DNA of 30,287 nt from Oligoflexia bacterium (GCA_043732485.1 JAYTHP010000150.1:1-30287), one strand, 5' to 3'; shown: positions 326 through 23,512, counted from the stretch's first letter. Numbers and translations: made by a program. The notes: a model not told the origin generated them from the sequence alone.

Positions 326-3300
326 CTACGAAAACAGGGCTCTTAAGTACAAGAAGATTGCCAGCGGCTGTTGTGAGGCTTCGCGAGGCACCGGGGCGAG
401 TAAAACGACGCGCCCGTCGGCGAGCACTTGAAAAGGAGTCCTTTTGGCGCTGAGGTTGGCGTGCAGTGGCTGGTGCTGGTCCGGTTGCGGCAAAAGCAGC
501 AGTTTCACGGGCGTGTCTGGGCGGTGGTTGGGGAGTGACGGCGTGGGTGCGGGCGGGAGGCTTGGGGGCTGCGGCCTTGAGGTGAGCGCGTGCGTGGTCG
601 AGCCGCTTCGTTTGCGCAAAGTCGGTTGCGGGGGGAGCGAGATTGCCGGGCTTGGAGGCGCGCTTTCGCTGGCTTTAGGTTGCAAGTTGATCTTCAGTTT
701 CAGGATTTTCTGGTTGCGCAGCAGGATTTTAAGGCGCATGAGCATCAGGAGCTGTTTGGCTTCAAGCGGCAAGGCACCGAAGCGATCGGCGAGCTCTGCT
801 TCCAGCTCCAGGATCTCAGCGTCGTCCGTCATGACGGAAAGCCTACGGTAAAGCGCGAGTCGTTGGTGAACTGGCGGGATGTAGTCTTCGCCTAAGTAGG
901 CTGCAAAAGGAAAATGAATGTCAGGCTCGTTTTTGAGTGCCGCTGAGCGTGGGTGGGCGCCTGCGGATCCTGCGGGTAAGGACGAAGACGACTGGTCTAG
1001 CCCCTGCATGGCCTCTTCCAGCAGTTCCAGGTAGAGATCAAAGCCGACGGAGGCAATATTTCCTGATTGTTTTGATCCGATAATGTCGCCGCCACCGCGG
1101 GCTTCCAGGTCGTGGAGGGCGATTTGAAAGCCGCTGCCGAGTTCGACGTTTTTTTGTAAGGTGTTGAGGCGCAAGAGCGCGTCTTCGCTCACTTCGGTTT
1201 CTTCGGGGATCAGGAGGTAAGCCACGGCCCGCTCTGTGCTGCGGCCCACGCGTCCTCGGATCTGGTAGAGTTGTGATAAGCCTAAAAGGTCGGCGCGGTT
1301 GACGAGCAGGGTATTGGCGTTAGGAACGTCAAGGCCTGACTCAATAATCGTGGTGCATAACAGCACTTGGATTTCGTGGGCGTGAAACGCTAGCATTTGT
1401 TTTTCTAACAAGGCGCTGGGCATTTGTCCGTGGGCCGCGGCAAAGCGCACGTGAGGCATCAGGGCTTGCAGTTGCTCTAAGCAAGGCAGCAGGGTCTCAA
1501 TCCTAGGGTGCAGGAAGTAGACTTGGCCGCCACGTTGTATTTCAAATTCAATGGCTTTTTCGATCAGCGGGAGACTGAATTGCGCGAGATAGGTGCGAAT
1601 GGGTAGGCGGTTTTTGGGGGGGGTGCGCAGCAGACTCATCTCGCGTAACCCGCCTAGGGTCATGTGTAAGGTTCTGGGGATAGGAGTAGCCGACAGCGCC
1701 AAGGCGTGGGTGTTAGTCTTGAGGGTTTTGAGTTTCTCTTTGTGACGCACGCCAAAGCGATGCTCCTCGTCCACCACGATCAGCCCTAGGTTTTGAAACT
1801 GGATGTCGTTGGAGAGCAGGCGATGGGTGCCAATGATCAAGTCAATTTTGCCTTGCGCTAGCTCCTGGAGGATGGTTTTTTGTTGGGCTGCACTTTTAAA
1901 GCGGGAAACGGAGCGAATGAGGATGGGAAAAGCGCGAAAGCGCGCTTGAAATGCCACCTCGTGTTGTTGCGCCAGTAAGGTGGTGGGGGCAAGCAGCGCC
2001 ACTTGGTAGCCGCTTGCAATCACCTGAAAGGCCGCCCGCATGGCGATTTCCGTTTTCCCAAACCCCACGTCGCCGCAAATCAGGCGGTCCATGGGTTGAC
2101 CGGATTGGAGATCGCTTTCAATGGCCTCAAGCGCGCTCAGTTGGTCGGGGGTTTCGCTAAAGGGAAAGTGCGAGATGAAGTCAGAAAAATCCGCTCCCGG
2201 TGGCGCAACACTGAGCCCTTTTTGCTTTTTGCGCTGAGCATAGAGCTGGACCAGCTCGAAGGCGAGCGTCTCGGTATCTTCGCGCACTTGCTGCAAGGTT
2301 TTTTGAAACTTCGGGCTGCCGAGCAGATCAAGCGGCGGGTGAGCCTCCGGACCGAGGTATTTTTGGAGCCAGGCGAGTTTATCGACTGGCACATAGAGTC
2401 GATCGGCACCCGCGTATTCGAGCGTGACAAAATCGCTGGGAGCGCCCGATAAGGTGAGTCGACTTAACCCCTGATAGCGCCCTAAACCGTAATCGCGGTG
2501 AATCAGGGAGTCACCCACCTGAAACTCACCAAGCAGCGGCTGCTTCTTAGGAGAGGGCGAGGGGCGGGCTTTTTTGGGTCCGCTGCCGAGCCCCTTGATC
2601 CGCCCCTCGCTTAAGTTCAAGACCATCAGCTGTTCTTGCTCCCAGTAAAACCCCCCGCTCAAGCGGCCAGGCACGAGGTAAAGACCGGGGAGTTGGCTTG
2701 CAAACGAGCTTTGCACCGCGCAGCCTAAAGCGGCCAGTTCGGCGCGCACCTCCTCAGCTTGAGTGGCTGTTGCGACCACCCCGAGCATGCGGGTCCCCTG
2801 TTTTTGATGGCGCAAAAGCCAGCGACTGAATTGCTCAAGCGATTGGTGGCGGGCCGTGGGGTCCTCCCAGGTCTCTTGCGGGGTTTTCATGGGCAAAAAA
2901 ATCAAAGCTGGCTTGCTCCCTGCCGCGGGGGTCATTTCGGTGAGCTGCAAAAGATCAAAAAACAAATCAGCCGTGGCGCCGCCGCCCTGAGGTTCCGCTC
3001 CTTGCTTTGACCGTGCCATTAGCCTCTCGGGCGGTAAAAAGAGTGCTTCAGGCGGAGGCAGTAGACGGTAGGAGGTGGGGGTGTGAGGGGCGCTAGGGGA
3101 GGGTTTAAGGAGCGCATTATTTTCTGCAATCTGAGCGTCAAAAAACTGCTGCCAGTGCTTCAGGCAATGGGCCTGCTCGTTCCAGACCCAGGAGGTGGGG
3201 TGTGCCAGGTAATCGCACAAGGTGCTGGTGGCGTTCGTGAGGCCATCGTCCAGGCTATCGTTTGGCGTGGCAAAGCAAAAAGGAGCCCAAAGCAACGCGT

Positions 3301-4165
3301 CGGGGAGAAACTGACCGCGTTGGGCTGCTTGCAGGGTGCTTTCAAGCTTACGCAGCGGCCATTTGAGTTCCAAAGCGCGATTTTTCAGTTGGGTCAGCAG
3401 CGGACGTCGATGCTGGGCCTGGAAGAGCACCTCGTAGGCGGGAGGAACCCGCAATGTTTGGGGAGAGGTGGGGGTTGCGTCACCCGGGGCACGCGCCTGC
3501 CTGGTGGAAACTTGGGTGTCTGGATGAAAAAAGCTGATGCGGCTGATCTCACCGTCTTCTCCGAGTTCCAAGCGAGTCGGTAGGCTTGCGTCGCTAGGAA
3601 AAAGATCAATAATCTCGCCGCGCAGCGAAAAGGTGCCTGGATCTTCCACTAAGTCGCACTCCAGGTAGCCGCGCTCGGTGAGGCTGCTTGCCAGGGTGCC
3701 GTAAGCGGGTTGATCGCCTAAGCGAAAATGGAGCAGCGCCTCGCAAAACGCCTGCGGCGGCAAGATCACCTGGCTGATGGCAGGCAAAGTGCTGATCACC
3801 AACTCAAGGCGGCTGATGGGGGTGGTGGTGGTGGAGTTTTGGGTGAGTCGGGAGAGCGTTTTTAAGCGCTCAAAGCGCACCTGGGGGCTGGCTTTCACGC
3901 TGCTATAGAGCGAATGATCCCAGTGGGGGAAAAAAGCAAAGCGCTCCTCGTGGCGGGAGGAAGAGGACGAAGAGGAGCTGGGCTTGAGCGCCGCTGCCAG
4001 CGTGAGCAGGCACTCGAACAGCTCGCGGGCTTGCTCCTCATCAGGGCACAGCACCAGTGCAGGGAGCTGGGGGAAGGCATTTTGGGCGAGGGCTTGCAGC
4101 AAGATCCAGGCGCGAGCGGAAAGCGGAGCGCCTGCAAACCGAGTGGGCAGTGAGAGTGAATTCAT
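326..4165 (-). CDS. mfd: Transcription-repair coupling factor Mfd
   Basis: 1279 aa. UvrB-like N-terminal region (FSLRGEIIDLFP), CarD/TRCF RID domain (HRDYGLGRYQG...LYVPV), Walker A GDVGFGKT, DEEH, SATPIPRT, QIRGRVGR, TRG motif DLEARGGG, C-terminal RLALYRRL...ELADRFG. Confidence 0.97.
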   Translation of the reverse strand: MNSLSLPTRFAGAPLSARAWILLQALAQNAFPQLPALVLCPDEEQARELFECLLTLAAALKPSSSSSSSSRHEERFAFFPHWDHSLYSSVKASPQVRFERLKTLSRLTQNSTTTTPISRLELVISTLPAISQVILPPQAFCEALLHFRLGDQPAYGTLASSLTERGYLECDLVEDPGTFSLRGEIIDLFPSDASLPTRLELGEDGEISRISFFHPDTQVSTRQARAPGDATPTSPQTLRVPPAYEVLFQAQHRRPLLTQLKNRALELKWPLRKLESTLQAAQRGQFLPDALLWAPFCFATPNDSLDDGLTNATSTLCDYLAHPTSWVWNEQAHCLKHWQQFFDAQIAENNALLKPSPSAPHTPTSYRLLPPPEALFLPPERLMARSKQGAEPQGGGATADLFFDLLQLTEMTPAAGSKPALIFLPMKTPQETWEDPTARHQSLEQFSRWLLRHQKQGTRMLGVVATATQAEEVRAELAALGCAVQSSFASQLPGLYLVPGRLSGGFYWEQEQLMVLNLSEGRIKGLGSGPKKARPSPSPKKQPLLGEFQVGDSLIHRDYGLGRYQGLSRLTLSGAPSDFVTLEYAGADRLYVPVDKLAWLQKYLGPEAHPPLDLLGSPKFQKTLQQVREDTETLAFELVQLYAQRKKQKGLSVAPPGADFSDFISHFPFSETPDQLSALEAIESDLQSGQPMDRLICGDVGFGKTEIAMRAAFQVIASGYQVALLAPTTLLAQQHEVAFQARFRAFPILIRSVSRFKSAAQQKTILQELAQGKIDLIIGTHRLLSNDIQFQNLGLIVVDEEHRFGVRHKEKLKTLKTNTHALALSATPIPRTLHMTLGGLREMSLLRTPPKNRLPIRTYLAQFSLPLIEKAIEFEIQRGGQVYFLHPRIETLLPCLEQLQALMPHVRFAAAHGQMPSALLEKQMLAFHAHEIQVLLCTTIIESGLDVPNANTLLVNRADLLGLSQLYQIRGRVGRSTERAVAYLLIPEETEVSEDALLRLNTLQKNVELGSGFQIALHDLEARGGGDIIGSKQSGNIASVGFDLYLELLEEAMQGLDQSSSSLPAGSAGAHPRSAALKNEPDIHFPFAAYLGEDYIPPVHQRLALYRRLSVMTDDAEILELEAELADRFGALPLEAKQLLMLMRLKILLRNQKILKLKINLQPKASESAPPSPAISLPPQPTLRKRSGSTTHALTSRPQPPSLPPAPTPSLPNHRPDTPVKLLLLPQPDQHQPLHANLSAKRTPFQVLADGRVVLLAPVPREASQQPLAIFLYLRALFS

Positions 4166-4286: not shown

Positions 4287-4742
4287 ATGCCTATGCTGAC
4301 TAATAAATGGGATTCCTACTCAATTGTCTTCCTCTCGGCGCTGCTCGCGTTGTTCATTCCCATTTTTTTAGCCTTCTTGTCCTGGTTGCTTTCGCTAACG
4401 CATCAAAAACGAGCGGTTAGTCCAAGTCCTAAGGCAGTGCACAAGGGGGTTCCCAAAAGCGCTCCCGTCAGTGCCGTGCCTTCGTTGATTCTGCTGGGTG
4501 GCCGCATTCACGTGCGTTTTTTTCTGGCGACCAATGCCGCACTGATTTTAATCACGCTCAGTCTTTTGCTGATCCCCTTTGTCACGGTGGTGGACGGAGG
4601 GGGAGCCGGGGGGGCGGCGGTGGATTGGACGAGCGGAGTGGGTGTAGGCGGGGTCCCCAATCGTTTGTTAGGTATTTTGAGTGTGGCTTTGTTTGCGGCG
4701 TTAGGTTTGCTCTATTCGATTCACAAAGAAGACATGGGTTAA
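4287..4742 (+). CDS. nuoA: Divergent NuoA-like membrane subunit (set 1)
   Basis: 151 aa, three hydrophobic segments, first gene before nuoB. RFFL...LIPF and LGLLYSIHKE echo NuoA KFYLVA...LYP and GYLY..K, but the ECG and FDVE motifs are absent. Confidence 0.7.
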   Translation: MPMLTNKWDSYSIVFLSALLALFIPIFLAFLSWLLSLTHQKRAVSPSPKAVHKGVPKSAPVSAVPSLILLGGRIHVRFFLATNAALILITLSLLLIPFVTVVDGGGAGGAAVDWTSGVGVGGVPNRLLGILSVALFAALGLLYSIHKEDMG

Positions 4743-4775
4743 TGACTTCGAACTTCGGTGCTTTGGGTTAAAATC

Positions 4776-5243
4776 ATGGGATCTTTTTACTTAGCCACTT
4801 TAGGTCAACTCGTCAAATGGGCGCGCTCCCGTTCCTTATGGTATGTCACCACTGGGTCAGGCTGTTGCGGCGACGAGGTGCTCAATGCCATGGGCTGTCG
4901 CTATGACCTGGAGCGCTTTGGTTGTTTGCCGCAAGTCGATCCGCGGCAAGCCGATTTGCTGATCGTGTGTGGGATGGTTTCCTACAAGGCGATGCCTTAT
5001 TTGCTCGATTTTTATGATAAAATGCTTTCTCCTAAGTATGTCTTAGCGGTAGGTTCTTGTGCCAGCTCAGGAGGGCCGTTTTCTCCGGATCTGAGTTACT
5101 CGGTGGTGCCGGGGGTGAACGCGGTGATTCCGGTGGATGTTTACGTGCCCGGATGTCCCCCTCGGCCGGAGGCGGTCATGAATGGTTTGATTGCCTTGCA
5201 GGAGAAAATTTGTGGACAACGATCCGCTACGTTTGAAAATTGA
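4776..5243 (+). CDS. nuoB: NuoB-like Fe-S (N2) subunit (set 1)
   Basis: GCC.DE, YDLERFG, PRQADLLIV, GSCASSGG, VDVYVPGCPPRPEA. ATG at 4776 preferred; the ORF is open from GTG 4758. Confidence 0.95.
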   Translation: MGSFYLATLGQLVKWARSRSLWYVTTGSGCCGDEVLNAMGCRYDLERFGCLPQVDPRQADLLIVCGMVSYKAMPYLLDFYDKMLSPKYVLAVGSCASSGGPFSPDLSYSVVPGVNAVIPVDVYVPGCPPRPEAVMNGLIALQEKICGQRSATFEN

Positions 5244-5733
5244 GCAGGCTTTTCCCGGGGTGCTCCTCGAGGGACGCCCTTTTGGCAAGTCCGATTGGCC
5301 TTCTCCTCTCTGGATTGCTTCTCACGCCTTAGCCGGGGTAGCGAAGTTGCTGAAGCAGGATCCCTCCGCGCCGTTGACTTTTTTAGAGAACTTGTCGGTA
5401 GTGGAGTTGGAGCAGGGGCTGATTGCCTCGTATTTTCTCAGTACGCGGGATTTTAAGAAAAAAGCGATGATTCGCTTCACCCTAGCGCTCGACCCGCTGG
5501 TGCCGCTGGTGATTCCTTCTGTCAAGCAGGTCTGGCCGATGGCCAAGCCGATGGAGCAAGAAATCAGTGAGCTGTTTGGCATTCAATTTGTGCTGCCCAA
5601 CGGGCAAAAAGTGGCTCATAGTGGCGGTCTCTTGGCGCCGGATTGGGCGGGCTATCCCCTGCGCAAGGCTTATAGCTTTCCCAGTCAATTTCAGGGGGTG
5701 ACTCATGCCAGAAATGGGGTGTCGCGTGGGTAA
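5212..5733 (+). CDS. nuoC: NuoC-like subunit (set 1)
   Basis: IPSVKQVWPMAKPMEQEISELFGIQF and DWAGYPLRK match NuoC (W..A.W.ERE..D.FG; GHPLRK). In-frame GTG at 5212 has GGAG upstream at 5201-5204. Confidence 0.88.
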   Translation: MDNDPLRLKIEQAFPGVLLEGRPFGKSDWPSPLWIASHALAGVAKLLKQDPSAPLTFLENLSVVELEQGLIASYFLSTRDFKKKAMIRFTLALDPLVPLVIPSVKQVWPMAKPMEQEISELFGIQFVLPNGQKVAHSGGLLAPDWAGYPLRKAYSFPSQFQGVTHARNGVSRG

Positions 5734-5739
5734 AAGCGC

Positions 5740-6888
5740 ATGAGGATGGACTGGATTGAGAACAAAAGTTTACTGACGCTCTGGGAGATGGGTCCTTATC
5801 ACAGTGCGTTGCCCGGTCCGATGCGGCTGCGTTTGTGGCTAGACGGCGAGTGGATTGCTGGTAGTGAGGTGGAGCACGGTTTTTTGCACCGAGGGTTAGA
5901 AAAGTGTCTAGAGTTGCATTCCTGGCGCGAGGCGTTGGCGTATGTCGATCATCTCGATCCTGAGGCGGCCATTTTTGGTGAGCTCGTTTTTTGCCTGGCA
6001 GTGGAAGAAATCCTGGGGGTGGAAGTGCCCGAGCGGGCGCAATTTATTCGCATGATTGTGGCTGAGCTCAGTCGCATTAGCTCGCATTTGCTCTTCATGG
6101 TGCGCATTGCCCAAGCGGTTGGCTCCGAAACGATCGTCCATTATCTGCTGCGCGACCGTGAAAAGATCCTTGATTTGTTTGAGCTCTTGACCGGGGCGCG
6201 TTTTTCCCATCACTTTTTGCGCTTTGGGGGGGTGGCCTATGACATGTCGGATGGTTTTATTGAGCGGGTGCTGGAGGTCTGTGATCTGATTCAAATTCGG
6301 ATGAAAGAGTACAACGATTTGTTCACCTATAACAATATTTTCGTGAAACGCAGCGCCAACATTGGGGTGTTAACGGCAGCGCAAGCTTTTGCAGCAGGCG
6401 TCACTGGTCCCAATGCGAGGGCCTGCGGGGTGGACGTCGATTTACGGCGGGAGTGTCCTTATTTGCGCTATCAGGATTTAGACTTTAATCCTGCAGTGGG
6501 GGCCGGAGAGGTGGGCAGTTTGGGGGACGTGCATGATCGCTTTTTGGTGCGGTTGCGGGAAATGGAACAAAGCATCCATTTGCTGAGGCAAGCGGTGCGG
6601 CAGGTGCCAGCCGGGGCGTTTTCCGAACCACACCGCGGGGACAGCGCCAGTTTGTTTGATTTTACCGTGGCGCCTGGTGAGGCTTATGCCCGGATTGAGA
6701 GCGCCCGCGGCTTGTTGGGCTGTCACGTGGTTTCCGACGGCAAGGAGCGTCCGTGCCGGGTGCAGTTTCGCGTGCCGACCCAGGGTCATTTATTAGTCTT
6801 ACCGGAACTACTCCAAGGCGCGAGGATTGAAGATTTATCGGTGATCCTTGCGAGTCTGGATCTGGGAATGGCGGAGGCGGACCGATGA
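5740..6888 (+). CDS. nuoD: NuoD-like subunit lacking quinone-site residues (set 1)
   Basis: MGPYH, LDGE, GFLHRGLEK, ELSRISSHL, RFGGV, C-terminal ASLDLGMAEADR. No NiFe CxxC motifs. Confidence 0.93.
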   Translation: MRMDWIENKSLLTLWEMGPYHSALPGPMRLRLWLDGEWIAGSEVEHGFLHRGLEKCLELHSWREALAYVDHLDPEAAIFGELVFCLAVEEILGVEVPERAQFIRMIVAELSRISSHLLFMVRIAQAVGSETIVHYLLRDREKILDLFELLTGARFSHHFLRFGGVAYDMSDGFIERVLEVCDLIQIRMKEYNDLFTYNNIFVKRSANIGVLTAAQAFAAGVTGPNARACGVDVDLRRECPYLRYQDLDFNPAVGAGEVGSLGDVHDRFLVRLREMEQSIHLLRQAVRQVPAGAFSEPHRGDSASLFDFTVAPGEAYARIESARGLLGCHVVSDGKERPCRVQFRVPTQGHLLVLPELLQGARIEDLSVILASLDLGMAEADR

Positions 6889-8054
6889 TCGGGTCAAGGT
6901 TCGGTTTGGCACTCCTGAGCACGGCAGCTGCGGCCACCCCGGGGTTAAGCGCCGACCCGGTGGCGGCCACCACGACAACAACGCCTGTGGCCAGTGCGTG
7001 GATCCATTACTGGATTCAGCCGCATGATGTGGGCCTCCCCTCGTGGTTTCTCTTCATCTTGACCTTAATCTTGATCTATCTGACGGTCTTGATTCCGGCT
7101 GCAGGGCTGATGATGTATCTTGATCGCAGGTTAGGCGCAGTTTTTCAAGCGCGCATCGGACCGCAGCGGGTCGGGCTGCAGGGGTTGTTGCAGCCCTTAG
7201 CCGATTTTTTAAAGTTATTACAAAAAGAGCTCTTGCAGCAAAAAAGCTGGCAAGAGAGCTTTTGGTTGGGGCTGTATACCATGGCCTTGTACTCGGTGCT
7301 TGCGGTCTTGCCGCTCGGCTCGCTGGCGCTGATGGTGGATACCGAGATGAGCGCTTTTTTGCCTTTCTGGGCGGCTTTGGTGTTTGCCTTAGGGACGATG
7401 CTCTTGGGCTTGAATCAGGGGTCGGTGCCAGGCTGGCTGGGCGGTATTCGGGTGGCAGCCCAGACTTTGGCGGGGGCTTTTCCGGCGCTCATCTCGCTGG
7501 TGTGTGCCGGGGTCAATGCCGGTAGTTTCCGCTGGAGTGTGCTTGCGGGCGCGCAGCGGGTGACGCCGTGGAGTTGGACGGCGCTCAGCAATCCGTTTCA
7601 ATTTAGTGCCTTTGTGGTGTTCATGATGAGTGGCTTGGTCCTGCTTGCGATTCCGCCGCTTGATGGCGGGTTGTCAGGCCCGGAGATGCAAGGTGGGATT
7701 TCTTCCTCGCTGTTTGGTCGGAATTTAAGTCTGTTTCACTTTGGCAGGTTTTTTGGCTTCTTCTTTTGGTCGATCATCACGGTGGTGCTGTTTTTAGGGG
7801 CGTGGGCCTTGCCTGAGTCCTTGCGTGATTTTCTGATGGACAGTGAGTCCTATCGCTCCTTGATTTTACTGGAGTTAGGCTGCGTGCTGGTTAAAAGTTT
7901 GTCGCTGATGGTCTTGGTGATTTGGGTTGCCAGGGTCAATCCCCGCAGTCGAGTCGACCAGATTACCGATTTTGCCTGGACGGTGCTGAGTCCTTTTGCG
8001 CTGATGAGCCTAGTGGGTGTGACGCTTTATGCCGGATGGAAGGCGCACGGATGA
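6885..8054 (+). CDS. nuoH: NuoH-like membrane subunit (set 1)
   Basis: QARIGPQRVG..GLLQPLADFLKLLQKE and PRSRVDQ. ATGA overlap with the nuoD stop. Confidence 0.92.
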   Translation: MIGSRFGLALLSTAAAATPGLSADPVAATTTTTPVASAWIHYWIQPHDVGLPSWFLFILTLILIYLTVLIPAAGLMMYLDRRLGAVFQARIGPQRVGLQGLLQPLADFLKLLQKELLQQKSWQESFWLGLYTMALYSVLAVLPLGSLALMVDTEMSAFLPFWAALVFALGTMLLGLNQGSVPGWLGGIRVAAQTLAGAFPALISLVCAGVNAGSFRWSVLAGAQRVTPWSWTALSNPFQFSAFVVFMMSGLVLLAIPPLDGGLSGPEMQGGISSSLFGRNLSLFHFGRFFGFFFWSIITVVLFLGAWALPESLRDFLMDSESYRSLILLELGCVLVKSLSLMVLVIWVARVNPRSRVDQITDFAWTVLSPFALMSLVGVTLYAGWKAHG

Positions 8055-8587
8055 GGTATTCCTTTATTTCCCAGTTTTTAATTTACCTCTGGGGGGTTTT
8101 TCAAGGGGCGCGTTCACTGGGGCAAGCCTGCTGGGTGGCGGTGCCTTATATTTTTCGCTGGGGGGAGCTCAAGCGAGAGGTGACAGATGGTTATCCCGAT
8201 CCGGTGTCTTCGCGCACGGCGGATGATTTGCCGCAACGCAGCCGGGGCTTTTTGTTCAATGAAATTGATCGCTGTACCGGATGCCGCGAGTGCGAGCGGG
8301 TGTGTCCGACCCACTGTATTAGCATTGAAGAAGAACCAGGGGCTGATGTCTCAAAAACCTGGATTTCGGTGTTTGACATTGATTTTGCGCGTTGCATGTT
8401 TTGTGGGCTTTGTGTTGAGATCTGTCAGCCGGCCTCGCTCAATCACACCAAGCAGTATGAGGGGGCAGCCTTTCAGTTACCCGATCTGGTGGCCAGTTTT
8501 GGTCGCGGGGTGGTAACCGAGGAGCAGCGGAAGAAGTGGGCCGTGATGCGGGAAGAGCAAGTCAATGATGAGGATGATTTCTTGTGA
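8051..8587 (+). CDS. nuoI: NuoI-like 2x[4Fe-4S] subunit (set 1)
   Basis: VTDGYP, RG, CTGCRECERVCP, FDIDFARCMFCGLCVEIC. Start at ATG 8051 (ATGA overlap with the nuoH stop) rather than 7922. Confidence 0.93.
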   Translation: MRYSFISQFLIYLWGVFQGARSLGQACWVAVPYIFRWGELKREVTDGYPDPVSSRTADDLPQRSRGFLFNEIDRCTGCRECERVCPTHCISIEEEPGADVSKTWISVFDIDFARCMFCGLCVEICQPASLNHTKQYEGAAFQLPDLVASFGRGVVTEEQRKKWAVMREEQVNDEDDFL

Positions 8588-9120
8588 TTAGCGCTTTGTT
8601 CGGTTTAATTGCCATTCTGGCAGCCTTTATTGCCACCTTTGAGCAGCAGATGCGGCGGGCGGTGCTGGCCTTATGGTTGTGTGGGATTGCCACGGGCTCC
8701 TTGTATTTGAGTCTCGGGGTAGAGTTTTTAGCCATTATCCAGTGGATTCTCTCCACCCTGGTGGCCATTTCTTTTATCCTGTTTGCCGTTATGTTTGGGG
8801 AATTTCAAACGGCAGGCGTGGAGGAGCGGGGGGAGCAAAAAAACCGGCTCCTTTTGCACCTGATTTTGGCGCTTGCGGTGGGTTTTGGCTTTTTGCTGAC
8901 CCTGGGGCTGGGGATGCAAGGGTTTTTGGAGCGTCCGTTGCCGCATAGCAGCGAATGGGGCGACTTGGCGGAGATTGGCAAAATGCTCTCTGCGCATTTG
9001 CTGGCGGTGGAGGTTTTAATCATTTTGCTCTTCTTGACGCTGGTGGGAGGCGGGGTGATTGCGCGTGGGCCTGTTGGGGGCGGTGGTCAAGCAGGAGAGA
9101 GGAAGGAGGACCTGCGGTGA
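8584..9120 (+). CDS. nuoJ: NuoJ-like membrane subunit (set 1)
   Basis: LYLSLGVEFLAIIQ...FAVMF and IGKML..HLLAVEV..ILL follow the NuoJ layout. GTGA overlap, located between nuoI and nuoK. Confidence 0.85.
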   Translation: MISALFGLIAILAAFIATFEQQMRRAVLALWLCGIATGSLYLSLGVEFLAIIQWILSTLVAISFILFAVMFGEFQTAGVEERGEQKNRLLLHLILALAVGFGFLLTLGLGMQGFLERPLPHSSEWGDLAEIGKMLSAHLLAVEVLIILLFLTLVGGGVIARGPVGGGGQAGERKEDLR

Positions 9121-9407
9121 TTTTGCTGGTTCCTATTCTTTTAGGGAGTCTCGGGCTGGTGTCGCTGTTTTCGCGCACCAGTATGATGGGAATTCTGATT
9201 GGCGTGCAGTTATTGATCCTTGGCACCTCGCAGATGTTCATCCTCACGGGGATGATTGCAGGCGAGCTTGCCAAAGGTGGGCTTTTAGGGTTTTGTATCG
9301 TCTTAGGTGGGGTGGCCCAGCTGGTGGTGGGTTACACCCTGAGTTTACGCTTGTTTCATTTGAAGCAATGCGTAAATCTCAGTGAAATACAGGAGCTGAA
9401 GAAATGA
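9117..9407 (+). CDS. nuoK: NuoK-like membrane subunit (set 1)
   Basis: 96 aa, three TM helices from GTG 9117 (GTGA overlap, AAGGAGGA SD). Aligns to NuoK with Gln at both conserved Glu positions. Confidence 0.82.
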   Translation: MILLVPILLGSLGLVSLFSRTSMMGILIGVQLLILGTSQMFILTGMIAGELAKGGLLGFCIVLGGVAQLVVGYTLSLRLFHLKQCVNLSEIQELKK

Positions 9408-11416
9408 CCCCTCAACTGATCGCCCTCTCCGACGACACCGGCGCGGTCCTACCTATGACCTCTTCTTGGTTGATGCTGGCTATTTTTTTTTTAGTGGCCT
9501 GTGGTCTCGTTGTGTTTGCCTCGGGGAAGAAGCTACCGCTGCGAGGTCTTTGGCTGTTGTGGTTGGCTTTAGTGCTGGTGGTGGCAGGCTCCGGGATGGA
9601 TTCGGGGCTATTTTTTGGTTTACCGAGCGTGACGAAAGCTTGGCTCGGGGAATGGATTTTGCCGCATGAGGAGTTAGGTGCGGTTAGTTTTGGGATCATT
9701 CATGACAAAATGAGCGAGGTGATGAGCGTACTCGTGGCGCTGATCACTGGGCTCTTGCTGCTGAAACACCCCAAATGGGCGCAAGCGGAGCACGCTTATA
9801 AAATTTACTCAGGCCTGGCGTTCTCAACAGCAGGGGTGATTTTAGCCTGGAATTCACTCACGCTGTGGATTGGCTTTGTGGGGGGAATTTTAACGCTGCT
9901 GGGCGGGGCGATTGCCCTGAGTTGCTCGGCTTGGCCCAGTGAGCAGAAGGATCTCACTTTACAGTTTATTTGGGAAAAAAGTGCGGGGTTTTTCTTTGCC
10001 TTTCTAGGAGCAGCGGTGCTGGCGGGTTCTAGGCCTGGGCTTTTTCTAACCCAAGCCTCGTCGTTGCCAATTTCTGAGGGCAACAGCAGCTTGCAGCCGC
10101 ATGCGACGGTCGCCTGGGTCGGCTCAAGCCTACTGGTTTTGGGTTTATTTTCGCAAGCGCAATCGTTCCCTTACTTAGGTTGGATGAACTATCAGTACTC
10201 CTTGTACTTGCCTGTCAGGGTCTTGCTCAGTCAGATTTTTCCCTTCTGGGCGGCTTTTGCCTTATTCTTGCGCTTCCAGCCGCAGCTGGTCACCTTGGGT
10301 TTTTTGCCGCCACTCAGTTGGTTTGCTCTTGGTTCAAGCCTGCTCACCTTAATTTCGGGGTTTTGCCAGCACTCCTGGCAACAGTCCTTTGGCGCTTTGC
10401 TCTCAGCCGGGTTTGCCCTCGTATTTGCGATCCTTGCTTCCGGTCAGCCGACCTCAGCTGGGCTGAGTTTGTTTTTGGGGATCAGCTTGGGTGGTTTGAC
10501 CTTTTTGCTGGCAGGCGAGGCGTTAGACGGCAGTCTTGAGGTGGCCGAAGCGGAGACGAAGTCGAGTCATCAGCGCACTAGCCTTTTTTTGAAGTTGGCT
10601 TGTGGCTTAGGCGTGGCTGCGATGACAGGGTTTTTCGGGTTCGTCTCAGCGCAAGGCGGCTTGGATTGGGTGGGGATGAAGGTGCATCAGCCGATTCAAA
10701 AAGTCTTCGTGCTCTTGGTTTTCTTTTTGTTCGTGGTGCTCGCGTGGCGTATTTTCTTTCAAATCAAACGGCTGCGCGCTCAGTCGCCTGCCCGTTTGTT
10801 GACTTTTGTCGCGCTGTTCATTTTACTGCTCCTCTCCAGCGGGCTGCTGTGGAGTGGCAGTCTCTCGGGAGGCGTTTTACTCAACCATCCTGATCAACTT
10901 TTTTCCCTCGGTCTGCACTCGCTCCTGGCGGGGCGCGCGGAGTGGAACGACTTTGATGATTACTTGTCGGCGTCGGGGCTCTACTGGGGGGTGATGTTGC
11001 TGGCTTTTTTAACCGCAGGGTGGACGTCCTCGGTGGCAGCTGAGAAGTGGGGGCGGGCCAACTCGTTTTTCCCCAAAGCCCGGCAATTCTTAAAGTCGGG
11101 CTACCAGATTCAGGAACTTTACGCCTGGGCGATGAAGGCTTTAATTGTGATGGGTCTCAGGTTAGAGTTTGTGGTTAGTACCAAGATCTGGGATCAGGGA
11201 ATGTCGCGTGGGTTATGGTTTTGTGTGAGTTCGGTGGCAAGCTCGGTGCAGCAGATCGATCAGTGGGTTTTTGAGTGTTTGGAGCTGCCGCTGGTCAAGG
11301 GGGTAGATCTTTCCTCCAAGCTGCTGCAGCTGATTCAAACGGGCGACGTGAGGTGGTATTTACTGTTCGGCCTCGGCGTGGGGTTTGGGTTACTGGCGCA
11401 TTTTTTAACGATTTGA
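9404..11416 (+). CDS. nuoL: Highly divergent NuoL-like antiporter-fold subunit (set 1)
   Basis: 670 aa multi-TM protein between nuoK and nuoM, with NuoL-type C-terminus LQLIQTGDVRWYLLF and W...FG..HD.MS N-terminal pattern. Core charged motifs are absent. Confidence 0.8.
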   Translation: MTPQLIALSDDTGAVLPMTSSWLMLAIFFLVACGLVVFASGKKLPLRGLWLLWLALVLVVAGSGMDSGLFFGLPSVTKAWLGEWILPHEELGAVSFGIIHDKMSEVMSVLVALITGLLLLKHPKWAQAEHAYKIYSGLAFSTAGVILAWNSLTLWIGFVGGILTLLGGAIALSCSAWPSEQKDLTLQFIWEKSAGFFFAFLGAAVLAGSRPGLFLTQASSLPISEGNSSLQPHATVAWVGSSLLVLGLFSQAQSFPYLGWMNYQYSLYLPVRVLLSQIFPFWAAFALFLRFQPQLVTLGFLPPLSWFALGSSLLTLISGFCQHSWQQSFGALLSAGFALVFAILASGQPTSAGLSLFLGISLGGLTFLLAGEALDGSLEVAEAETKSSHQRTSLFLKLACGLGVAAMTGFFGFVSAQGGLDWVGMKVHQPIQKVFVLLVFFLFVVLAWRIFFQIKRLRAQSPARLLTFVALFILLLLSSGLLWSGSLSGGVLLNHPDQLFSLGLHSLLAGRAEWNDFDDYLSASGLYWGVMLLAFLTAGWTSSVAAEKWGRANSFFPKARQFLKSGYQIQELYAWAMKALIVMGLRLEFVVSTKIWDQGMSRGLWFCVSSVASSVQQIDQWVFECLELPLVKGVDLSSKLLQLIQTGDVRWYLLFGLGVGFGLLAHFLTI

Positions 11417-11508
11417 TTTTGAGGGTCTGGTTTTAAGGACCTTGTTTTAAGGTTCTTATTTTAATAATCCAGAGAAAATTCGCCAGAGAAAATTTACCAG
11501 AGAAAATT
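11417..11508. repeat. Two adjacent 14-bp-period tandem repeat arrays in the nuoL-nuoM spacer
   Basis: ttttgagggtctgg/ttttaaggaccttg/ttttaaggttctta (11417-11458), then CCAGAGAAAATT at 11469, 11483 and 11497. Confidence 0.85.
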
Positions 11509-11526
11509 TAAAGGACAAGACGTTTC

Positions 11527-13032
11527 ATGACACACCACTGGATCAGCTTTATGGTCTTCACTCCGCTTCTGGGAGCCTTATTGCAATCTTTCTTCTCCTC
11601 AGCCAAAAGTCGCTGGATTGCCCTGGCCGCAAGCCTGCTGTCGAGCATCTTTGGCTTGGTGGCGGTCATGACCTTGCTGCCGCAAACGGCCGACCTGCAA
11701 CACCGCGAGTCGGTGCCGTGGGTGAGTGCTTATGCCATGAGCTATACCATGGGGATTGACGGGCTAAACGCCTTACTCGTGATTCTCATTGCCCTTTTGA
11801 TCCCGGTGCTGATTGGGGTGGAGTGGCGACAAAAAACGGCCATCCACGGCATGCACGGGCTATTTTTGGTCCTACAAACGGCGCTTTGCGGGGCAGTGTG
11901 TGCGCAAGACCTCTTTTTACAGTTTTTCTTCTGGAGCCTGAGCGCCTTGCCATTTTATTTTTTAGTCGGCATCTGGGGCGGGGCGGGGCGTGAGCGCGCC
12001 GCCTTACGCGCCATGGTGGTGAGCTCGGTGGGGCATGCCTTGATCTTCTCGGCGCTGGTGTTGATCTATTACTCAGTCGAGCCGCATTCTTTCTCTATCG
12101 AGGATCTAGCGGGCGGGAAGCTTGAGGGGAAGGTCTTTTTCTTCTTGAACCAAAGACTCTCCGTCTCCCAGGTGGCCTTTAGTTTGGTCAGCTTTGGGTT
12201 AGCCTTACGGGCCCCGATTTGGCCTTTTCATGGTGATTTTGTCGAAGTGGCGGGCGAGGCGCCACTTTCGGTTTTTGTGGCGCTGATTGCCGGAGTGGTG
12301 CCAGTGGCAATCGGTATTTTCATGCGCATTTGCTACTTCTTGTTTCCCGAGATTCTCAGTGAGTCCGCGAAAATTATCGTACTGATCGGAGTGATTAACC
12401 TGATTATGGGGGGGTTGGCTGCGGTGGCGCAAAAAAACCTGAGGGGCCTCCTCGCGTTTGTCTGCTTAAGCGAGGTGGGGTTTATCTTGATCGGGATGGG
12501 CTCGCTGTCGTCAGCAGGTGTGGTGGGTGCGGTGTACCAAACGCTTGTGATGGGGTTGAGTCTGGCGGGGTTTGGCCTGGTGGCGGGCATTATTTTGGAT
12601 CGCACCGGCAGCACTGATTTTTTAGATGCCAACAGCGATCGTCGCTTAGTCGGAGGATTGTCGCTGAAATGCCCCTACTTGGCGATGGTGGCAGGCGTGG
12701 TGGTGTTATCGCTCTTAGGTTTTCCGGGGTTTGCGGGTTTTGTCGGCCATGCCTTGTTGATTATCGGTAGCTCGGCTGTGCATCCAGCCACTGTGGTAGT
12801 TGCAGGAGGGGCATTTTTGCTGGCTTCTTACTACCTGTTTAAAATGTACCGGTTTATCTTTTTTGGTCCCCCTTTGCCTGCCAACTTGCGGGCTAGTGAT
12901 CTTGACTTGCGGGAGCGGGCGTATTTGTTCCCGCTCATGGTGGGGCTATTGTTTTTTGGCTTCTATCCCAAACCTTTGATTGAGTTGATGCGACCGACCA
13001 TCTTAACGCTGCTTTCTACCCTGAAACACTAG
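11527..13032 (+). CDS. nuoM: NuoM-like antiporter-fold subunit (set 1)
   Basis: MGIDGLN, QDLFL.FFFW...PFYFLVGIWGG, PIWPFH, EAP, PGFAGFVG, DLDLRE, GFYPKPL. Confidence 0.92.
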   Translation: MTHHWISFMVFTPLLGALLQSFFSSAKSRWIALAASLLSSIFGLVAVMTLLPQTADLQHRESVPWVSAYAMSYTMGIDGLNALLVILIALLIPVLIGVEWRQKTAIHGMHGLFLVLQTALCGAVCAQDLFLQFFFWSLSALPFYFLVGIWGGAGRERAALRAMVVSSVGHALIFSALVLIYYSVEPHSFSIEDLAGGKLEGKVFFFLNQRLSVSQVAFSLVSFGLALRAPIWPFHGDFVEVAGEAPLSVFVALIAGVVPVAIGIFMRICYFLFPEILSESAKIIVLIGVINLIMGGLAAVAQKNLRGLLAFVCLSEVGFILIGMGSLSSAGVVGAVYQTLVMGLSLAGFGLVAGIILDRTGSTDFLDANSDRRLVGGLSLKCPYLAMVAGVVVLSLLGFPGFAGFVGHALLIIGSSAVHPATVVVAGGAFLLASYYLFKMYRFIFFGPPLPANLRASDLDLRERAYLFPLMVGLLFFGFYPKPLIELMRPTILTLLSTLKH

Positions 13033-13183
13033 GATCTCATGACACTTTTGCAAACTCGCTGGATCACCCTGAGCATGACTGATACCCCACTGGGCCTAGA
13101 GGTAGGGGGGGGTATACCTTGAGGCGGGGTGACGCGCGCCTGGAACAACCGACCCCTTACTTTTTTTTCGCTGGTTTTTGCTT

Positions 13184-14659
13184 ATGAATGACGTCAGCTA
13201 TCTACTCCCCGAATTGGTCTTAGCGTTAACGCTTGCGGCAGTACTGTTAGGCGAGATCACCTATGTCGGTGAGCGGCTCAGGCTGGTCACCGCGGCCTCG
13301 ATTGTCGGGTTGCTGGTGGCGTTCCTTGAGACGATTTTTTCCTATCAGTATCCTGCCGGCTTGATCTTTGGTGGGGCACTGTCGTTTGATGGTTTTTCAT
13401 TGTTTTTTAAGCTGATTTTTATCCTGCTGGCCTTTTTTTCTATCATCTACATGAGCCGGACCCAGGAAATTGAGGTCGCACGCCGGGCGGAGTTTTGTTC
13501 CTTGATCCTGGCGGCAACGCTTGCCATGTGCCTGGTGGCCTCGGCCTCGGATGCCTTATTGATTTTCCTGAGCGTGCTGTTTTTAAATGTGATTTGCACT
13601 TTTTTGCTCGCCTTTGGGCGGGATTCTTGTGACTCGGTGGAAGCGGCGATTAAGTATTTTTGTTTTAGTGCCGTAGCAAGCGCGCTGCTGCTTTATGCGC
13701 TAGCCATCTTGTTTGGCACCACACGCTCACTCAATCTTTATGAGATGCACAAGGTGCTGGCCGTTACTCCGCTGGCACATTCAGCCAATTTGGTAGTTTT
13801 TGGCCTTATTTTTCTCGCGCTAGCCTTCCAGGTCGGCTCTTTTCCGATGTCGCTAGTGCTACCTGATGTCATCGAAGGCGCACCCACTCCAGTCTCGGCG
13901 TTCGTCAGTGTCGGTTCAAGGGCAGCCGGATTTGCCTTGATGATTCGAACCTTAATTGCGTTGTTTGCGCAAGCTGGGCCTGCCGATTCCTACCAGTGGC
14001 AAGTCATGGGGGATTTTGATTGGACCGTGATGCTTGAGATTGTCTCAGGGATCACTATGCTCTCGGGCGCTTTGCTCTCGGTGCGGCAAAAACGCGCCAA
14101 ACGGCTGATTGGTTGCCTGATTCTCGTAGAAACCGGCTATTTGTGGATGGGGGTTCTGGTGCTTGATCAAGTGGGGATTGCTGCCCTGCTTTATAACCTG
14201 GTGCTTGGGCTTTTTGCGCTGGTAGGCAGCTTTTTTGTGGTTTCACGCTTTTACCAGGAGTTCAAATCCGATCATCTCTCAGAGATGCGCGGCATGCTGC
14301 AGCGGGCGGTGCCCGAGTCGGTGTGTCTCATCTTGTTTCTGTTGTGCTTAACCGGCAGCGCCCCGACCCCAGGGTTTATTGGTAAATTTACCCTGATTGG
14401 CATTGCCGTGCAGCATCAAAAACTGATTCTTGCAGCCGTGGCCGTGCTTGCAAGCTTTATTTCGACTTTGTCGGTGGCGCGACTGACTTTTTACCTGATT
14501 GGCGATTTTAAGCAGATGGCAGGGGTGCCTAAGCTGAAGGTGACGCGAGGCGACCAGGTGTTTTTAGCGGCTCTCATGGTCCCACTCATTCTGCTTGGAC
14601 TGTTTTCTGATTGGGTGTTTGCGCTAGCCAATCGTAGTTTAGGGTTTATTTTCTGGTAG
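13184..14659 (+). CDS. nuoN: NuoN-like antiporter-fold subunit (set 1)
   Basis: LLPEL, EAAIKYF, PDVIEGAPTPVSAF, PTPGFIGKF. ATG 13184; ORF open from TTG 13178. Confidence 0.92.
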   Translation: MNDVSYLLPELVLALTLAAVLLGEITYVGERLRLVTAASIVGLLVAFLETIFSYQYPAGLIFGGALSFDGFSLFFKLIFILLAFFSIIYMSRTQEIEVARRAEFCSLILAATLAMCLVASASDALLIFLSVLFLNVICTFLLAFGRDSCDSVEAAIKYFCFSAVASALLLYALAILFGTTRSLNLYEMHKVLAVTPLAHSANLVVFGLIFLALAFQVGSFPMSLVLPDVIEGAPTPVSAFVSVGSRAAGFALMIRTLIALFAQAGPADSYQWQVMGDFDWTVMLEIVSGITMLSGALLSVRQKRAKRLIGCLILVETGYLWMGVLVLDQVGIAALLYNLVLGLFALVGSFFVVSRFYQEFKSDHLSEMRGMLQRAVPESVCLILFLLCLTGSAPTPGFIGKFTLIGIAVQHQKLILAAVAVLASFISTLSVARLTFYLIGDFKQMAGVPKLKVTRGDQVFLAALMVPLILLGLFSDWVFALANRSLGFIFW

Positions 14660-14698: not shown

Positions 14699-15061
14699 AT
14701 GATGGCCTACCTCCCTGTTTTACTAATGATGATGATTGGAGCGATCGTAGGTGGGGTTGTGTTGGCATTGACCACCTTTTTAGGACGAGGCACCCCGCAC
14801 CCGCGTAAGAACATGCCTTTTGAGTGCGGCGTACCCTCGGTGGGCGACACCCATCATCCATTTTCGGTAAAGTTTTACCTGGTGGCCATTCTTTTTTTAC
14901 TGTTTGATGTCGGGGCGGTGTTTTTGTACCCGCTGGCGCTGGTTTTTCGGCGATACCTGGCGGTCAATCGCTTCATCCTACTAGAAATGGCGCTCTTTTT
15001 AACCGTATTTTGCTTAGGCTACCTCTACGTGCGCTCAAAAGAGGCTTTAGACTGGGAGTGA
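14699..15061 (+). CDS. nuoA: NADH:quinone oxidoreductase subunit A (set 2)
   Basis: KNMPFECG, FSVKFYLVAILFLLFDV, ALDWE. Confidence 0.96.
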   Translation: MMAYLPVLLMMMIGAIVGGVVLALTTFLGRGTPHPRKNMPFECGVPSVGDTHHPFSVKFYLVAILFLLFDVGAVFLYPLALVFRRYLAVNRFILLEMALFLTVFCLGYLYVRSKEALDWE

Positions 15062-15085
15062 AAAGATTGTAATGGGTCAAGACTA

Positions 15086-15586
15086 ATGGGAAAAGACGGC
15101 TTTTTTGAATTTTTTACCACGCGCTTGGAAACCCTGGTGAGTTGGGGACAAAAAAACTCGCTTTGGCCTCTGCCCTTTGGCACTAGTTGTTGTGGCATTG
15201 AGATGATGGCCACCCTTTGCTCGGATTACGACATGTCGCGGTTCGGGGCGGAGGTGGTGCGCTTTTCTCCTCGACAAAGTGACTTGTTGATTGTAGCAGG
15301 GGTGATTAGCTTGAAGATGGCGCCGGTGTTAAAGACGGTTTACGACCAGATGAGTGATCCCAAGTTTGTGATGTCGTTTGGGGCTTGTGCCTCCTCGGGT
15401 GGTATTTTCAAGGTTTATAGTGTTTTGCAAGGCATTGATACCATGATTCCCGTGGATATTTACGTCCCGGGTTGCCCACCCGCTCCGGAAGGGGTTTTGC
15501 ATGCGCTGTTGCAGTTGCAAGAGCAGGTGGCGCGCGGCGTGACGCACTCGCAGCGTAGAATAGCAGGAATTGCTTATGGATCTTAG
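15086..15586 (+). CDS. nuoB: NADH:quinone oxidoreductase subunit B (set 2)
   Basis: [37 protein letters not shown]. Confidence 0.97.
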
Positions 15587-16160
15587 AAGCTTAGGTGGGC
15601 ACGGCGTGGCTGAGCAGGCGGCAAAGTGCGCGGAACGCTGGGCGCAGCAAGTGGCACTCCTTAAGACGCGCTTTAGTGTAGACGAATTGCTGGAGGTGGA
15701 GTCTTTGCCTGTCCAGGCAACCGATGTGCTCAGCCTCCGGGTGGTCAAAGAGTGCTTACTTAAGCTGATGCAGGTACTCAAAACGGAAGCTTTGTTTGAG
15801 TACGCGGTGTTGTCTGATCTCACGGCTGTTGATCACCTGCCTGAGGTCCCCCGCTTTGAGGTGATTTATCACTTACTTTCCTTGAGTCAAAAGATGCGCA
15901 TGCGCGTCAGAGTGCGGGTAGGCGAGGGAGACAGTGTGCCGACTTTAAGTGGGATGTGGCCTGGGGCCAATTGGCTGGAGCGTGAGGTTTACGACATGTT
16001 TGGTGTGCCGTTTGCCGAGCATCCCGATTTACGGCGGATTTTGATGGATACGCGCTGGGTCGGGCACCCGCTGCGTAAGGATTATCCTCTCGCAGGCTTC
16101 CAGGTTTTCACAGAGCCGCTCCCTGGCGATCCGGGATTGCTGCAAGGTGAGCATGAGTAA
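15576..16160 (+). CDS. nuoC: NADH:quinone oxidoreductase subunit C (set 2)
   Basis: [38 protein letters not shown]. Confidence 0.96.
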
Positions 16161-17403: not shown

Positions 17404-17599
17404 GGGGTATTAGTCAGACTTTTGTTCAGGCGTAAGAGAAAAAAAGGGGTGCCTGAAGACGGCAGGGAATTGTGGGTGAAGGACGCAGCGAGGGCAAAGG
17501 TAAAGTGGTGAGGGTGTGTGTGAGTGTCGGTATGAGTGTGTTTCTGGAGAGCCCTCCTGGCAAGAATGAACAGGCAGTGAGTAGAGCAAAAAAAAGATC

Positions 17600-18079
17600 A
17601 TGAGCAAAAAAATTCTATCTTCCAGCTTTTATCAGCAGATTGCACTGCTTAAGCCCCGCTACCCTACGCTCAAGGCGTTGATGTTACCGTGTTTGCATGC
17701 CGCGCAAGCCGAGCAGGGAGGGTGGCTACAGCAAGCGGTTTTAGATGAGATTGCTGAGCTACTGAAGCTGCATCCAGCGGAAGTGCGCGAGGTGGCCTCC
17801 TTTTACTCGATGATTGCGCTTGCCCCGGTGGCGCGCTATCAGATTAAGATTTGCACCAACGTGGCTTGCGCCCTGCGGGGGGCTGATCAGTTGATGCAGC
17901 AGTGTCAAAGCCAACTGGGCATTGAGTGTGGAGAGATGACCGACGATCAGAAGTTCTCGCTTGCAGAAGAGGAGTGCTTAGGGTCGTGCGGCACGGCGCC
18001 TGTGATGATGCTGAACCAAGAACACTATGAAAAAGTCGACGCGGCAGCGCTGCAGGGATTTTTAGAAGGGTTAGAGTGA
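17600..18079 (+). CDS. nuoE: NADH:quinone oxidoreductase subunit E
   Basis: EVASFYSM, CTNVAC and ECLGSCGTAP ([2Fe-2S] N1a ligands). Confidence 0.96.
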   Translation: MSKKILSSSFYQQIALLKPRYPTLKALMLPCLHAAQAEQGGWLQQAVLDEIAELLKLHPAEVREVASFYSMIALAPVARYQIKICTNVACALRGADQLMQQCQSQLGIECGEMTDDQKFSLAEEECLGSCGTAPVMMLNQEHYEKVDAAALQGFLEGLE

Positions 18080-18083
18080 ACAC

Positions 18084-22074: not shown

Positions 22075-22080
22075 ACGCAT

Positions 22081-23483: not shown

Positions 23484-23512
23484 TGGCTGTGTGATGAGGA
23501 GGCGGTGATATC

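Follow-up and report, generated by a model that had tools for sequence, protein, structure and literature searches.

What is a complete set of complex I genes for, once the residues of quinone reduction and proton pumping have been replaced in it, and why does it stand directly in front of a normal set? The question is raised by a contig of an Oligoflexia bacterium (GCA_043732485.1, JAYTHP010000150.1:1-30287), of which we analysed the whole stretch of 30,287 nucleotides, hereafter the window. Open reading frame (ORF) calls and Pfam searches reveal 25 complex I genes in a row on the plus strand, beyond a divergent mfd gene. The first eleven, nuoA-B-C-D-H-I-J-K-L-M-N at 4287-14659 (set 1, products A1 to N1), are followed by a canonical nuoA-N at 14699-29049 (set 2, products A2 to N2). 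Set 1 keeps the Fe-S (iron-sulfur) ligands of complex I and has replaced most of the residues at the quinone site and along the membrane arm. The answer that we modestly favour is that it encodes a pseudoenzyme comprising the whole complex, or an Fe-S-only module at most, which would sit beside the canonical complex I without converting energy.

Set 1 comprises eleven open plus-strand ORFs that match complex I subunits in nuo order. Pfam family matches are obtained for B, C, D, H, I, J, M and N. Specifically, B1 (4758-5243) matches PF01058 with 88.9 bits and lies above the NCBIfam cut-off for the NuoB subfamily, C1 (5191-5733) matches PF00329 with 55.8 bits (148.3 bits for C2), H1 (6885-8054) matches PF00146 with 161.6 bits (378.5 bits for H2), J1 (8584-9120) matches PF00499 with 44.8 bits, I1 (8051-8587) matches Fer4 families, and M1 (11527-13032) is above the cut-off of TIGR01972. 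K1 (9117-9407) scores weakly, with 20.1 bits against a cut-off of 26.1 bits and 88.1 bits for K2, and neither A1 (4287-4742) nor L1 (9404-11416) has a Pfam or NCBIfam match. Profile-profile comparison with hhalign aligns the A1 family with the NuoA family over 116 columns (probability 96.6%, E 5.7e-10); A1 has three predicted transmembrane (TM) helices. The very divergent L1 family aligns with the NuoL family over 497 colinear columns (probability 80.9%, E 1.2e-5), including a C-terminal 'QTG...Y' motif; L1 carries the C-terminal extension of NuoL, ending in IQTGxxxWY. An AlphaFold2 model of L1, of moderate quality (mean pLDDT, the predicted local distance difference test score, 59.9), has NuoL/NdhF/ND5 chains as all of its best 48 Foldseek matches. 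Together, Pfam, NCBIfam, hhalign and Foldseek find all 11 homologs, NuoA/B/C/D/H/I/J/K/L/M/N, encoded together. The earlier note on this stretch, which had been made from the sequence alone, described the set as intact, with every frame open, and as lying directly upstream of a full nuoA-N, and our analysis bears this out, with 39 bp between the two sets. The ORFs of I and K are open from 7922 and 8955, respectively, but ortholog lengths and overlapping start and stop codons indicate that I1 probably begins at the ATG at 8051, which overlaps the H1 stop, and K1, then 96 amino acids (aa) long, at the GTG at 9117. The real start of C1 probably also lies beyond its ORF start.

We compared each subunit with canonical complex I at residues regarded as key in the complex I literature. 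Positions in D1, M1, N1 and K1 were counted off printed HMMER alignments to solved chains, and those in H, A, J and L are given in the numbering of the window's own set 2. Set-2 numbering was used for L and J because no PDB chain matched them, at E<=0.001 for the L1 family profile or at E<=0.01 for J1 alone. A search for related loci gave 12 in metagenome-assembled genomes (MAGs; Bdellovibrionota, Oligoflexia and Bacteriovoracaceae) that carry the same operon, and a genome search gave two further loci, L034 and L035.

The quinone head-group site of NuoD has lost all three of its ligands. In D1 (5740-6888), aligned to Thermus thermophilus Nqo4, H38 is replaced by P25, Y87 by P74 and D139 by A126, and the same residues recur in the family (P in 12/13, P in 12/13 and A in 11/13, respectively). 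In addition, D1 has 'GLLGCHV' (C328-H329), W62 and C85, conserved and specific to set 1, where canonical NuoD has 'G.LG(F/Y)Y', Tyr and Leu; these residues could form a new ligand or contact site.

The carboxylates of the E-channel are likewise replaced. Aligned to Escherichia coli NuoK (3rko_K), K1 has Gln in place of both E36 and E72, and Gln occupies both columns in 11/11 sequences. H1, aligned to cyanobacterial NdhA (PDB search, E<=1e-8), has replaced the Glu of 'SYE' and the majority of the acids in the TM5-6 loop region: E166, E226, R229, E236, E238, E248 and E261 are all substituted, E261 by Arg in 12/12, which amounts to 7 of the 9 tabulated positions (eight acids and R229). H1 retains D260 and an acidic residue at 267, corresponding to D233 and E240 in set-2 numbering, and its N-terminal part keeps the interface Arg, Asp and Lys residues common to canonical NuoH. 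The TM2 Asp of NuoA (D70 of A2) is replaced by Ile in A1 and in 10/12 family members, and the TM3 Tyr of NuoJ (Y61 of J2) by Ser (9/11) or Ala (2/11).

The three antiporter-like subunits show the same pattern. In M1, aligned to E. coli NuoM (3rko_M), E144 is replaced by S137, K234 by R228, K265 by P259 and E407 by H408, with R in 10/10 at K234, P in 10/10 at K265 and H in 7/10 at E407. In N1 (13178-14659), aligned to E. coli NuoN (3rko_N), E133 is replaced by L134, K217 by Q218 and K247 by R248, while K395 is kept as K403 (Q in 9/10 at K217, R in 9/10 at K247, K in 10/10 at K395). In L1, E183, K267, H292, K380 and K436 are all replaced, K267 by Gln in 9/9. Counted over the key TM5 Glu, TM7 Lys, TM8 Lys/His and TM12 Lys/Glu positions of NuoL/M/N, 11 of 12 are lost, and the sole survivor is the TM12 Lys of N1 (K403). 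M1 K234 and N1 K247 have become Arg, and the others Q, P, H, N, G, A, S or L. Across set 1, the replacements are for the most part non-titratable (Gln, Arg, Pro, Ala and Asn), and many of them are look-alikes: E to Q, K to Q, K to R and H to N.

Most of the losses fall in the membrane arm. Among canonical-invariant D/E/K/R/H columns, 29/84 are kept in A, H, J, K, L, M and N, and 46/63 in B, C, D and I. Set 1 is nevertheless not free of charges: 66 charged positions are conserved in its membrane subunits, 29 of them in common with canonical complex I; L1 is the extreme, with only two conserved charged positions. The earlier note had spoken of catalytic residues replaced across A, D, H, J, K, L, M and N in a complex 'stripped' of them. 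The replacements themselves are confirmed, and alignments to solved chains by HMMER and profile-profile comparison recover no residue that has merely shifted; for J, however, the claim comes down to a single position, H keeps two acids, and 'stripped' overstates the case for M1, with 16 conserved charged or amide positions of its own, and for N1, with 21.

The Fe-S ligands, by contrast with the membrane arm, are untouched, as the earlier note had seen. The N2-ligating cysteines of B1 (C36, C37, C101 and C133) are present as 4/4 in 13/13 sequences, and the two complete CxxCxxCxxxC motifs of I1 as 8/8 cysteines in 12/12.

These features are shared by a family of operons rather than peculiar to the window. 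All 11 frames are open in the window, as they are in those related loci that are fully covered, and column tables of the related loci show that the set-1 substitutions are family-wide. A canonical nuoA-B(-C) follows N1 after 32-76 bp in 11/11 related loci with enough 3' flank, and a minus-strand ORF of 1183-1195 aa occupies the mfd position directly upstream in 7/7 related loci examined. An assembly artefact was rejected, given the same arrangement in 11 independent assemblies. A search of 401 phylum genomes finds NuoD matches with 45% or more identity to D1 in 56 genomes besides the window's, each from the same family or order as the window. Within the window's family, 55/57 genomes match D1 at E<=1e-60, a threshold that does not by itself separate set-1-type from other NuoD.

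The ratio of nonsynonymous to synonymous substitution rates (dN/dS), taken from the closest genome pair (L002/L003; synonymous divergence, dS, 0.34-0.51), is 0.014-0.17 for all 11 set-1 genes, far from the value near 1 that the earlier note had named as a sign of decay; the same pair gives 0.045-0.099 for A2, B2 and C2. Mean pairwise identity over six genomes is 0.60/0.60/0.69/0.54 for M1/H1/B1/N1, which comes close to the 0.62/0.64/0.73/0.59 for M2/H2/B2/N2. Divergence is clearly faster in L1, A1, C1 and K1 than in their set-2 counterparts, the mean identity over the same genomes being 0.36/0.48/0.41 for L1/A1/C1 versus 0.62/0.66/0.58. Among the NuoD matches listed, 149/150 are without an internal stop; a D1-type gene in genome G194 has one in-frame TAG. 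The substitution rates point to strong purifying selection on set 1, not decay. The earlier note had argued that coordinated loss without frameshift or stop reflects selection for a non-canonical role, and alignments, family conservation and dN/dS all support that argument.

To place set 1, a NuoD tree was built with FastTree from 168 rows, using the best 150 representatives of 50%-identity clusters for D1, leaving out fragments shorter than 330 aa and trimming fused C-D forms to the C-terminal 400 residues. Set-1-type NuoD forms one 53-leaf clade (support 99) with a mean depth from its root of ~1.7 substitutions per site. His is found at the H38 column in 0/53 of its leaves, and Tyr87 only in a few basal members. 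Outside the clade, the nearest leaf comes from a Gemmatimonadota operon of 11 genes (L012) that retains every key residue tabulated. D2 is far from the clade (distance 1.85), and D1 is 35% identical to D2. By the tree, set 1 is a descendant of a canonical-looking complex I without the NADH module (N-module), because this outgroup keeps the key residues, and not a recent copy of set 2. Thus, of the 'paralog in tandem' of the earlier note, the tandem arrangement with a canonical set holds, and a recent duplication does not, D1 and D2 being 35% identical and lying in different NuoD clades.

One of the basal members that keep Tyr87, the locus L034 (8475-18607; G198:C26), is an intermediate state, and for that reason suggests that the loss was stepwise. 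Its NuoD keeps the Tyr and has lost the His and Asp, and its NuoK glutamates are gone; it still has several NuoH acids and the equivalents of M K265/E407 and N E133. This locus was added to a fixed alignment, which makes its columns less certain, and the choice of its NuoI ORF is uncertain, so that its Cys row is unreliable.

We picture the pseudoenzyme as follows. The products of set 1 would assemble into a complex-I-shaped particle, with a membrane arm that serves as a structural scaffold and conducts nothing. The Fe-S chain would lead into a remodelled pocket without proton donors, and the particle would neither reduce quinone at the canonical site nor pump protons along the canonical charged axis. 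It might act as a scaffold, as an assembly or regulatory partner, or as a redox-state sensor next to the canonical complex I. A simple 'uncoupled' quinone reductase is not expected, since charge mutants stay coupled: according to the passages cited here from a study of Paracoccus Nqo13/ND4, neutralising conserved charges compromised catalysis and left it strictly coupled, with no escape cycles (PMC9802314).

Several observations weigh against a pseudoenzyme. All 12 Fe-S cysteines are strictly retained, and the most constrained subunits include I1, B1, K1 and M1 (dN/dS 0.015, 0.050, 0.014 and 0.019, respectively), a combination that suits electron transfer at least as well as a structural role. 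The membrane subunits have 37 conserved charged positions of set 1's own, and conserved polar residues stand in hydrophobic context in A1 (N83), J1 (E47), K1 (Q/Q), L1 (Q251/R272), M1 (R228/N291) and N1 (R248/E380); these charged and polar residues could form a different functional path. The Cys328-His329 pair and W62 of D1 are conserved in the family and absent from canonical NuoD. Finally, a membrane complex of ~4,000 residues would be a costly scaffold.

The alternative that survives best holds that set 1 still converts energy or redox equivalents, by new chemistry. A ferredoxin-like donor would feed the NuoI/NuoB clusters, and electrons would pass to a non-quinone acceptor or to a differently bound quinone in the NuoD/NuoH pocket, with the membrane arm as a mere anchor or moving a non-proton species along an amide- and guanidinium-lined axis. 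We consider this possible, while leaning against it. The strict retention of the Fe-S ligands, the very low dN/dS of I1 and B1, the polar membrane residues specific to set 1 and the D1 residues Cys328-His329 and W62 would all be at home in such an enzyme, as would the TM12 Lys of N1 and, in H1, D260, the acid at 267 and the N-terminal Arg, Asp and Lys residues. There is also precedent, in the passages cited from PMC3144371 and PMC11238625, for 11-subunit complexes without the NADH module that use other donors. However, with P/P/A at the three ligand positions in 11-12 of 13 sequences, the canonical quinone head-group site offers no proton donor, and where the Lys/Glu pairs stood there are now residues incapable of carrying protons. 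The operon, with only mfd upstream and set 2 downstream, is accompanied by no candidate gene for a donor or an acceptor. Moreover, blocked pumping in canonical complex I stalls catalysis instead of uncoupling it, as described in the part of PMC9802314 drawn on above. A working version of set 1, in which an Fe-S wire leads to a non-quinone acceptor in the NuoD pocket, with its conserved Cys-His pair and Trp, and in which the polar axis moves a different species or passes conformational or redox information on to the canonical complex I, seems to us rather doubtful.

A second alternative, which we rate as improbable, is that set 1 forms no complex by itself but supplies alternative subunits, which combine with those of set 2 into hybrid isoforms, for example at low stoichiometry or under regulation. 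Cyanobacteria make complex isoforms by means of NdhD/NdhF paralogs. The invariable tandem linkage with set 2 would fit such mixing, and so would one locus (L035; 8900-11010, G078:C5) in which set-1 B is followed straight by D, without C1, and in which hmmsearch finds C2 as the sole NuoC homolog of the 20-kb locus; this 10-gene version may borrow C2 or manage without NuoC. Yet all 11 core subunits are duplicated and have co-diverged, as a self-contained complex requires. Partners in the two sets are ~25-35% identical (D1/D2 35%; L1/L2 undetectable by BLAST), and their interfaces have probably diverged, while a hybrid containing D1 or K1 would be catalytically dead.

That set 1 is a decaying duplicate heading for loss is barely credible: family scores are weak or missing for A1, K1 and L1, the divergence of L1, A1 and C1 outpaces that of their set-2 counterparts, and the G194 gene carries its in-frame TAG, but all 11 frames are open in the window and in fully covered related loci, dN/dS is 0.014-0.17, and a clade ~1.7 substitutions per site deep shares the same fixed replacements.

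The two sets are probably co-transcribed, judged by the 39-bp spacer between N1 and A2, in which a promoter/terminator scan finds no terminator-like site; overall, that scan is not above shuffled expectation (5 versus 6.0 promoters, 31 versus 26.9 terminators). An 11-pair A/T-rich hairpin with a T-run lies at 11434-11458 (+), inside the 110-bp gap between L1 and M1, and is the sole long stem among the intergenic gaps of the operon, in the same scan whose total does not exceed shuffled expectation. It could be an internal attenuator or an RNA-processing site.

The remainder of the locus can be described briefly. Set 2 (14699-29049, +) encodes nuoA-B-C-D-E-F-G-H-I-J-K-L-M-N, with strong Pfam matches for all 14 products. 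No NuoE/F/G homolog is found within 4287-14659, the sole copies being those of set 2, so that set 1 has no NADH module of its own, and no further nuo genes are found in the rest of the 89%-complete genome. The genome has one other PF00361-like gene, at C250:15470-16264. The 5' edge of the cluster is formed by the divergent mfd (326-4165, minus strand), which encodes the transcription-repair coupling factor (Pfam TRCF/CarD/DEAD). H1 has an N-terminal Ala/Thr-rich extension (residues 1-45; 6885-7020), being 389 aa long versus 355-366 aa in most orthologs, and this extension looks specific to the window's genome. M2 (25587-27368) and N2 (27340-29049) have 593 and 569 aa, compared with ~500-530 in relatives, and M2 has a His-rich insert, HHHHHYH, near its C-terminus. 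A fragment of an IS4/IS5-family transposase (DUF4096 + DDE_Tnp_1; 29743-30285, +) lies at the contig end, ~700 bp past nuoN2, and runs off the window.

The source names of the homologs are Bdellovibrionota, Bdellovibrionia or Oligoflexia MAGs, and one set-1 locus belongs to Bdellovibrionota bacterium FG-1. In the passages cited from PMC13200544, FG-1 is placed in the uncultivated GTDB class UBA1018 ('Bdellonasia'); the text of that source covered here has 0 occurrences of 'nuo' and one of 'complex I'. The carriers are an uncultured Bdellovibrionota lineage, probably GTDB class UBA1018, in which we would also place the window's genome.

In other Bdellovibrionota families, six loci (L030, L031, L032, L033, L036 and L037) have a separate nuoB-C-D-I cluster, with a NuoD ~37-41% identical to both D1 and D2. 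We considered and rejected these ~40%-identity matches as set-1-type NuoD, as they lie in nuoB-C-D-I clusters and are equidistant from D1 and D2. A 'split' nuo arrangement is mentioned for Bdellovibrio in passages of PMC4758237 and PMC13147790, and the nuoB-C-D-I clusters are consistent with it. Three relatives have, on another contig, a third gene of the NuoN type with 37-39% identity to N2 (G001:C4:104699-105727, G005:C95:78463-79545 and G004:C7:134959-135933), which may indicate a further complex I- or Mrp-like locus in some members.

The coupling mechanism of complex I is debated and is usually probed by neutralising conserved charges singly. In set 1, the quinone ligands, the E-channel and the three antiporter modules have been neutralised nearly all at once in nature, with the fold, the Fe-S chain and strong selection kept across a deep clade, always beside a normal complex I. 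If set 1 is inert, it would be the first pseudoenzyme of a whole respiratory complex known to us, and would raise the question of what a complex-I-shaped scaffold serves; if it is active, it would represent a new reaction or transport mode on the chassis of complex I. In either case, set 1 offers a natural 'all-neutral' reference with which to sort structural from catalytic features of complex I. There is a practical side as well: annotation pipelines would label part of set 1 as ordinary NuoB/D/M, and metabolic reconstructions may for that reason overcount respiratory capacity.

How, then, does set 1 compare with known systems? As far as full-text searches and targeted passages reach, this type of operon is not described; subscription-only papers and supplements, such as figure S2 of PMC4758237 (deltaproteobacterial nuo clusters) and Tables S4/S5 of PMC13200544, lie outside that scope. 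An Ehr or hydrogenase identity was rejected. D1 matches NdhH/Nqo4 with E ~1e-71, compared with 1.1e-46 for Mbh alpha and 2.4e-25 for HycE, and has no NiFe cysteines at its N- and C-terminal motifs. The large subunit of Ehr, like D1, is without NiFe cysteines, and the passages cited from PMC4758237 state that Ehr lacks the canonical Ni-Fe ligands. Set 1 differs from Ehr and the other group 4 systems in having NuoA, J and K, three antiporter-like subunits and nuo gene order. Ehr is reportedly also without the quinone residues (Marreiros et al. 2013), and to our knowledge the loss of pump residues is not a described feature of Ehr. An Mrp antiporter was likewise rejected, with NuoB, C, D, H and I homologs present, MrpE/F/G absent and the Lys/Glu positions replaced.

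Set 1 also resembles complexes without the NADH module. Eleven-subunit complexes of this kind include the cyanobacterial and plastid NDH-1, the archaeal Fpo and the 'complex I-like' enzyme of Desulfitobacterium and other anaerobes. Set 1 has the same 11-gene content, and the best-scoring solved chains for D1, H1 and N1 are the cyanobacterial NdhH, NdhA and NdhB. NDH-1 and Fpo, unlike set 1, keep the canonical residues, and no NdhS- or FpoF-like donor subunit is found near set 1. With canonical complex I (E. coli Nuo and T. thermophilus Nqo), set 1 shares the 11 core subunits, the gene order, the Fe-S ligands of NuoB and NuoI and the long C-terminal extension of NuoL, and the best PDB matches of D1, H1, M1, N1 and K1 are complex I/NDH-1 chains. 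It differs in having no NuoE/F/G of its own and in the replacement of the quinone triad, the NuoK glutamates, most NuoH acids and 11/12 antiporter residues. Set 1 is a derivative of complex I specific to one lineage and tied head-to-tail to a canonical nuoA-N: by descent it belongs with complex I/NDH-1, and it departs from them in the quinone ligands, the E-channel acids and the charge pattern of the antiporter-like subunits.

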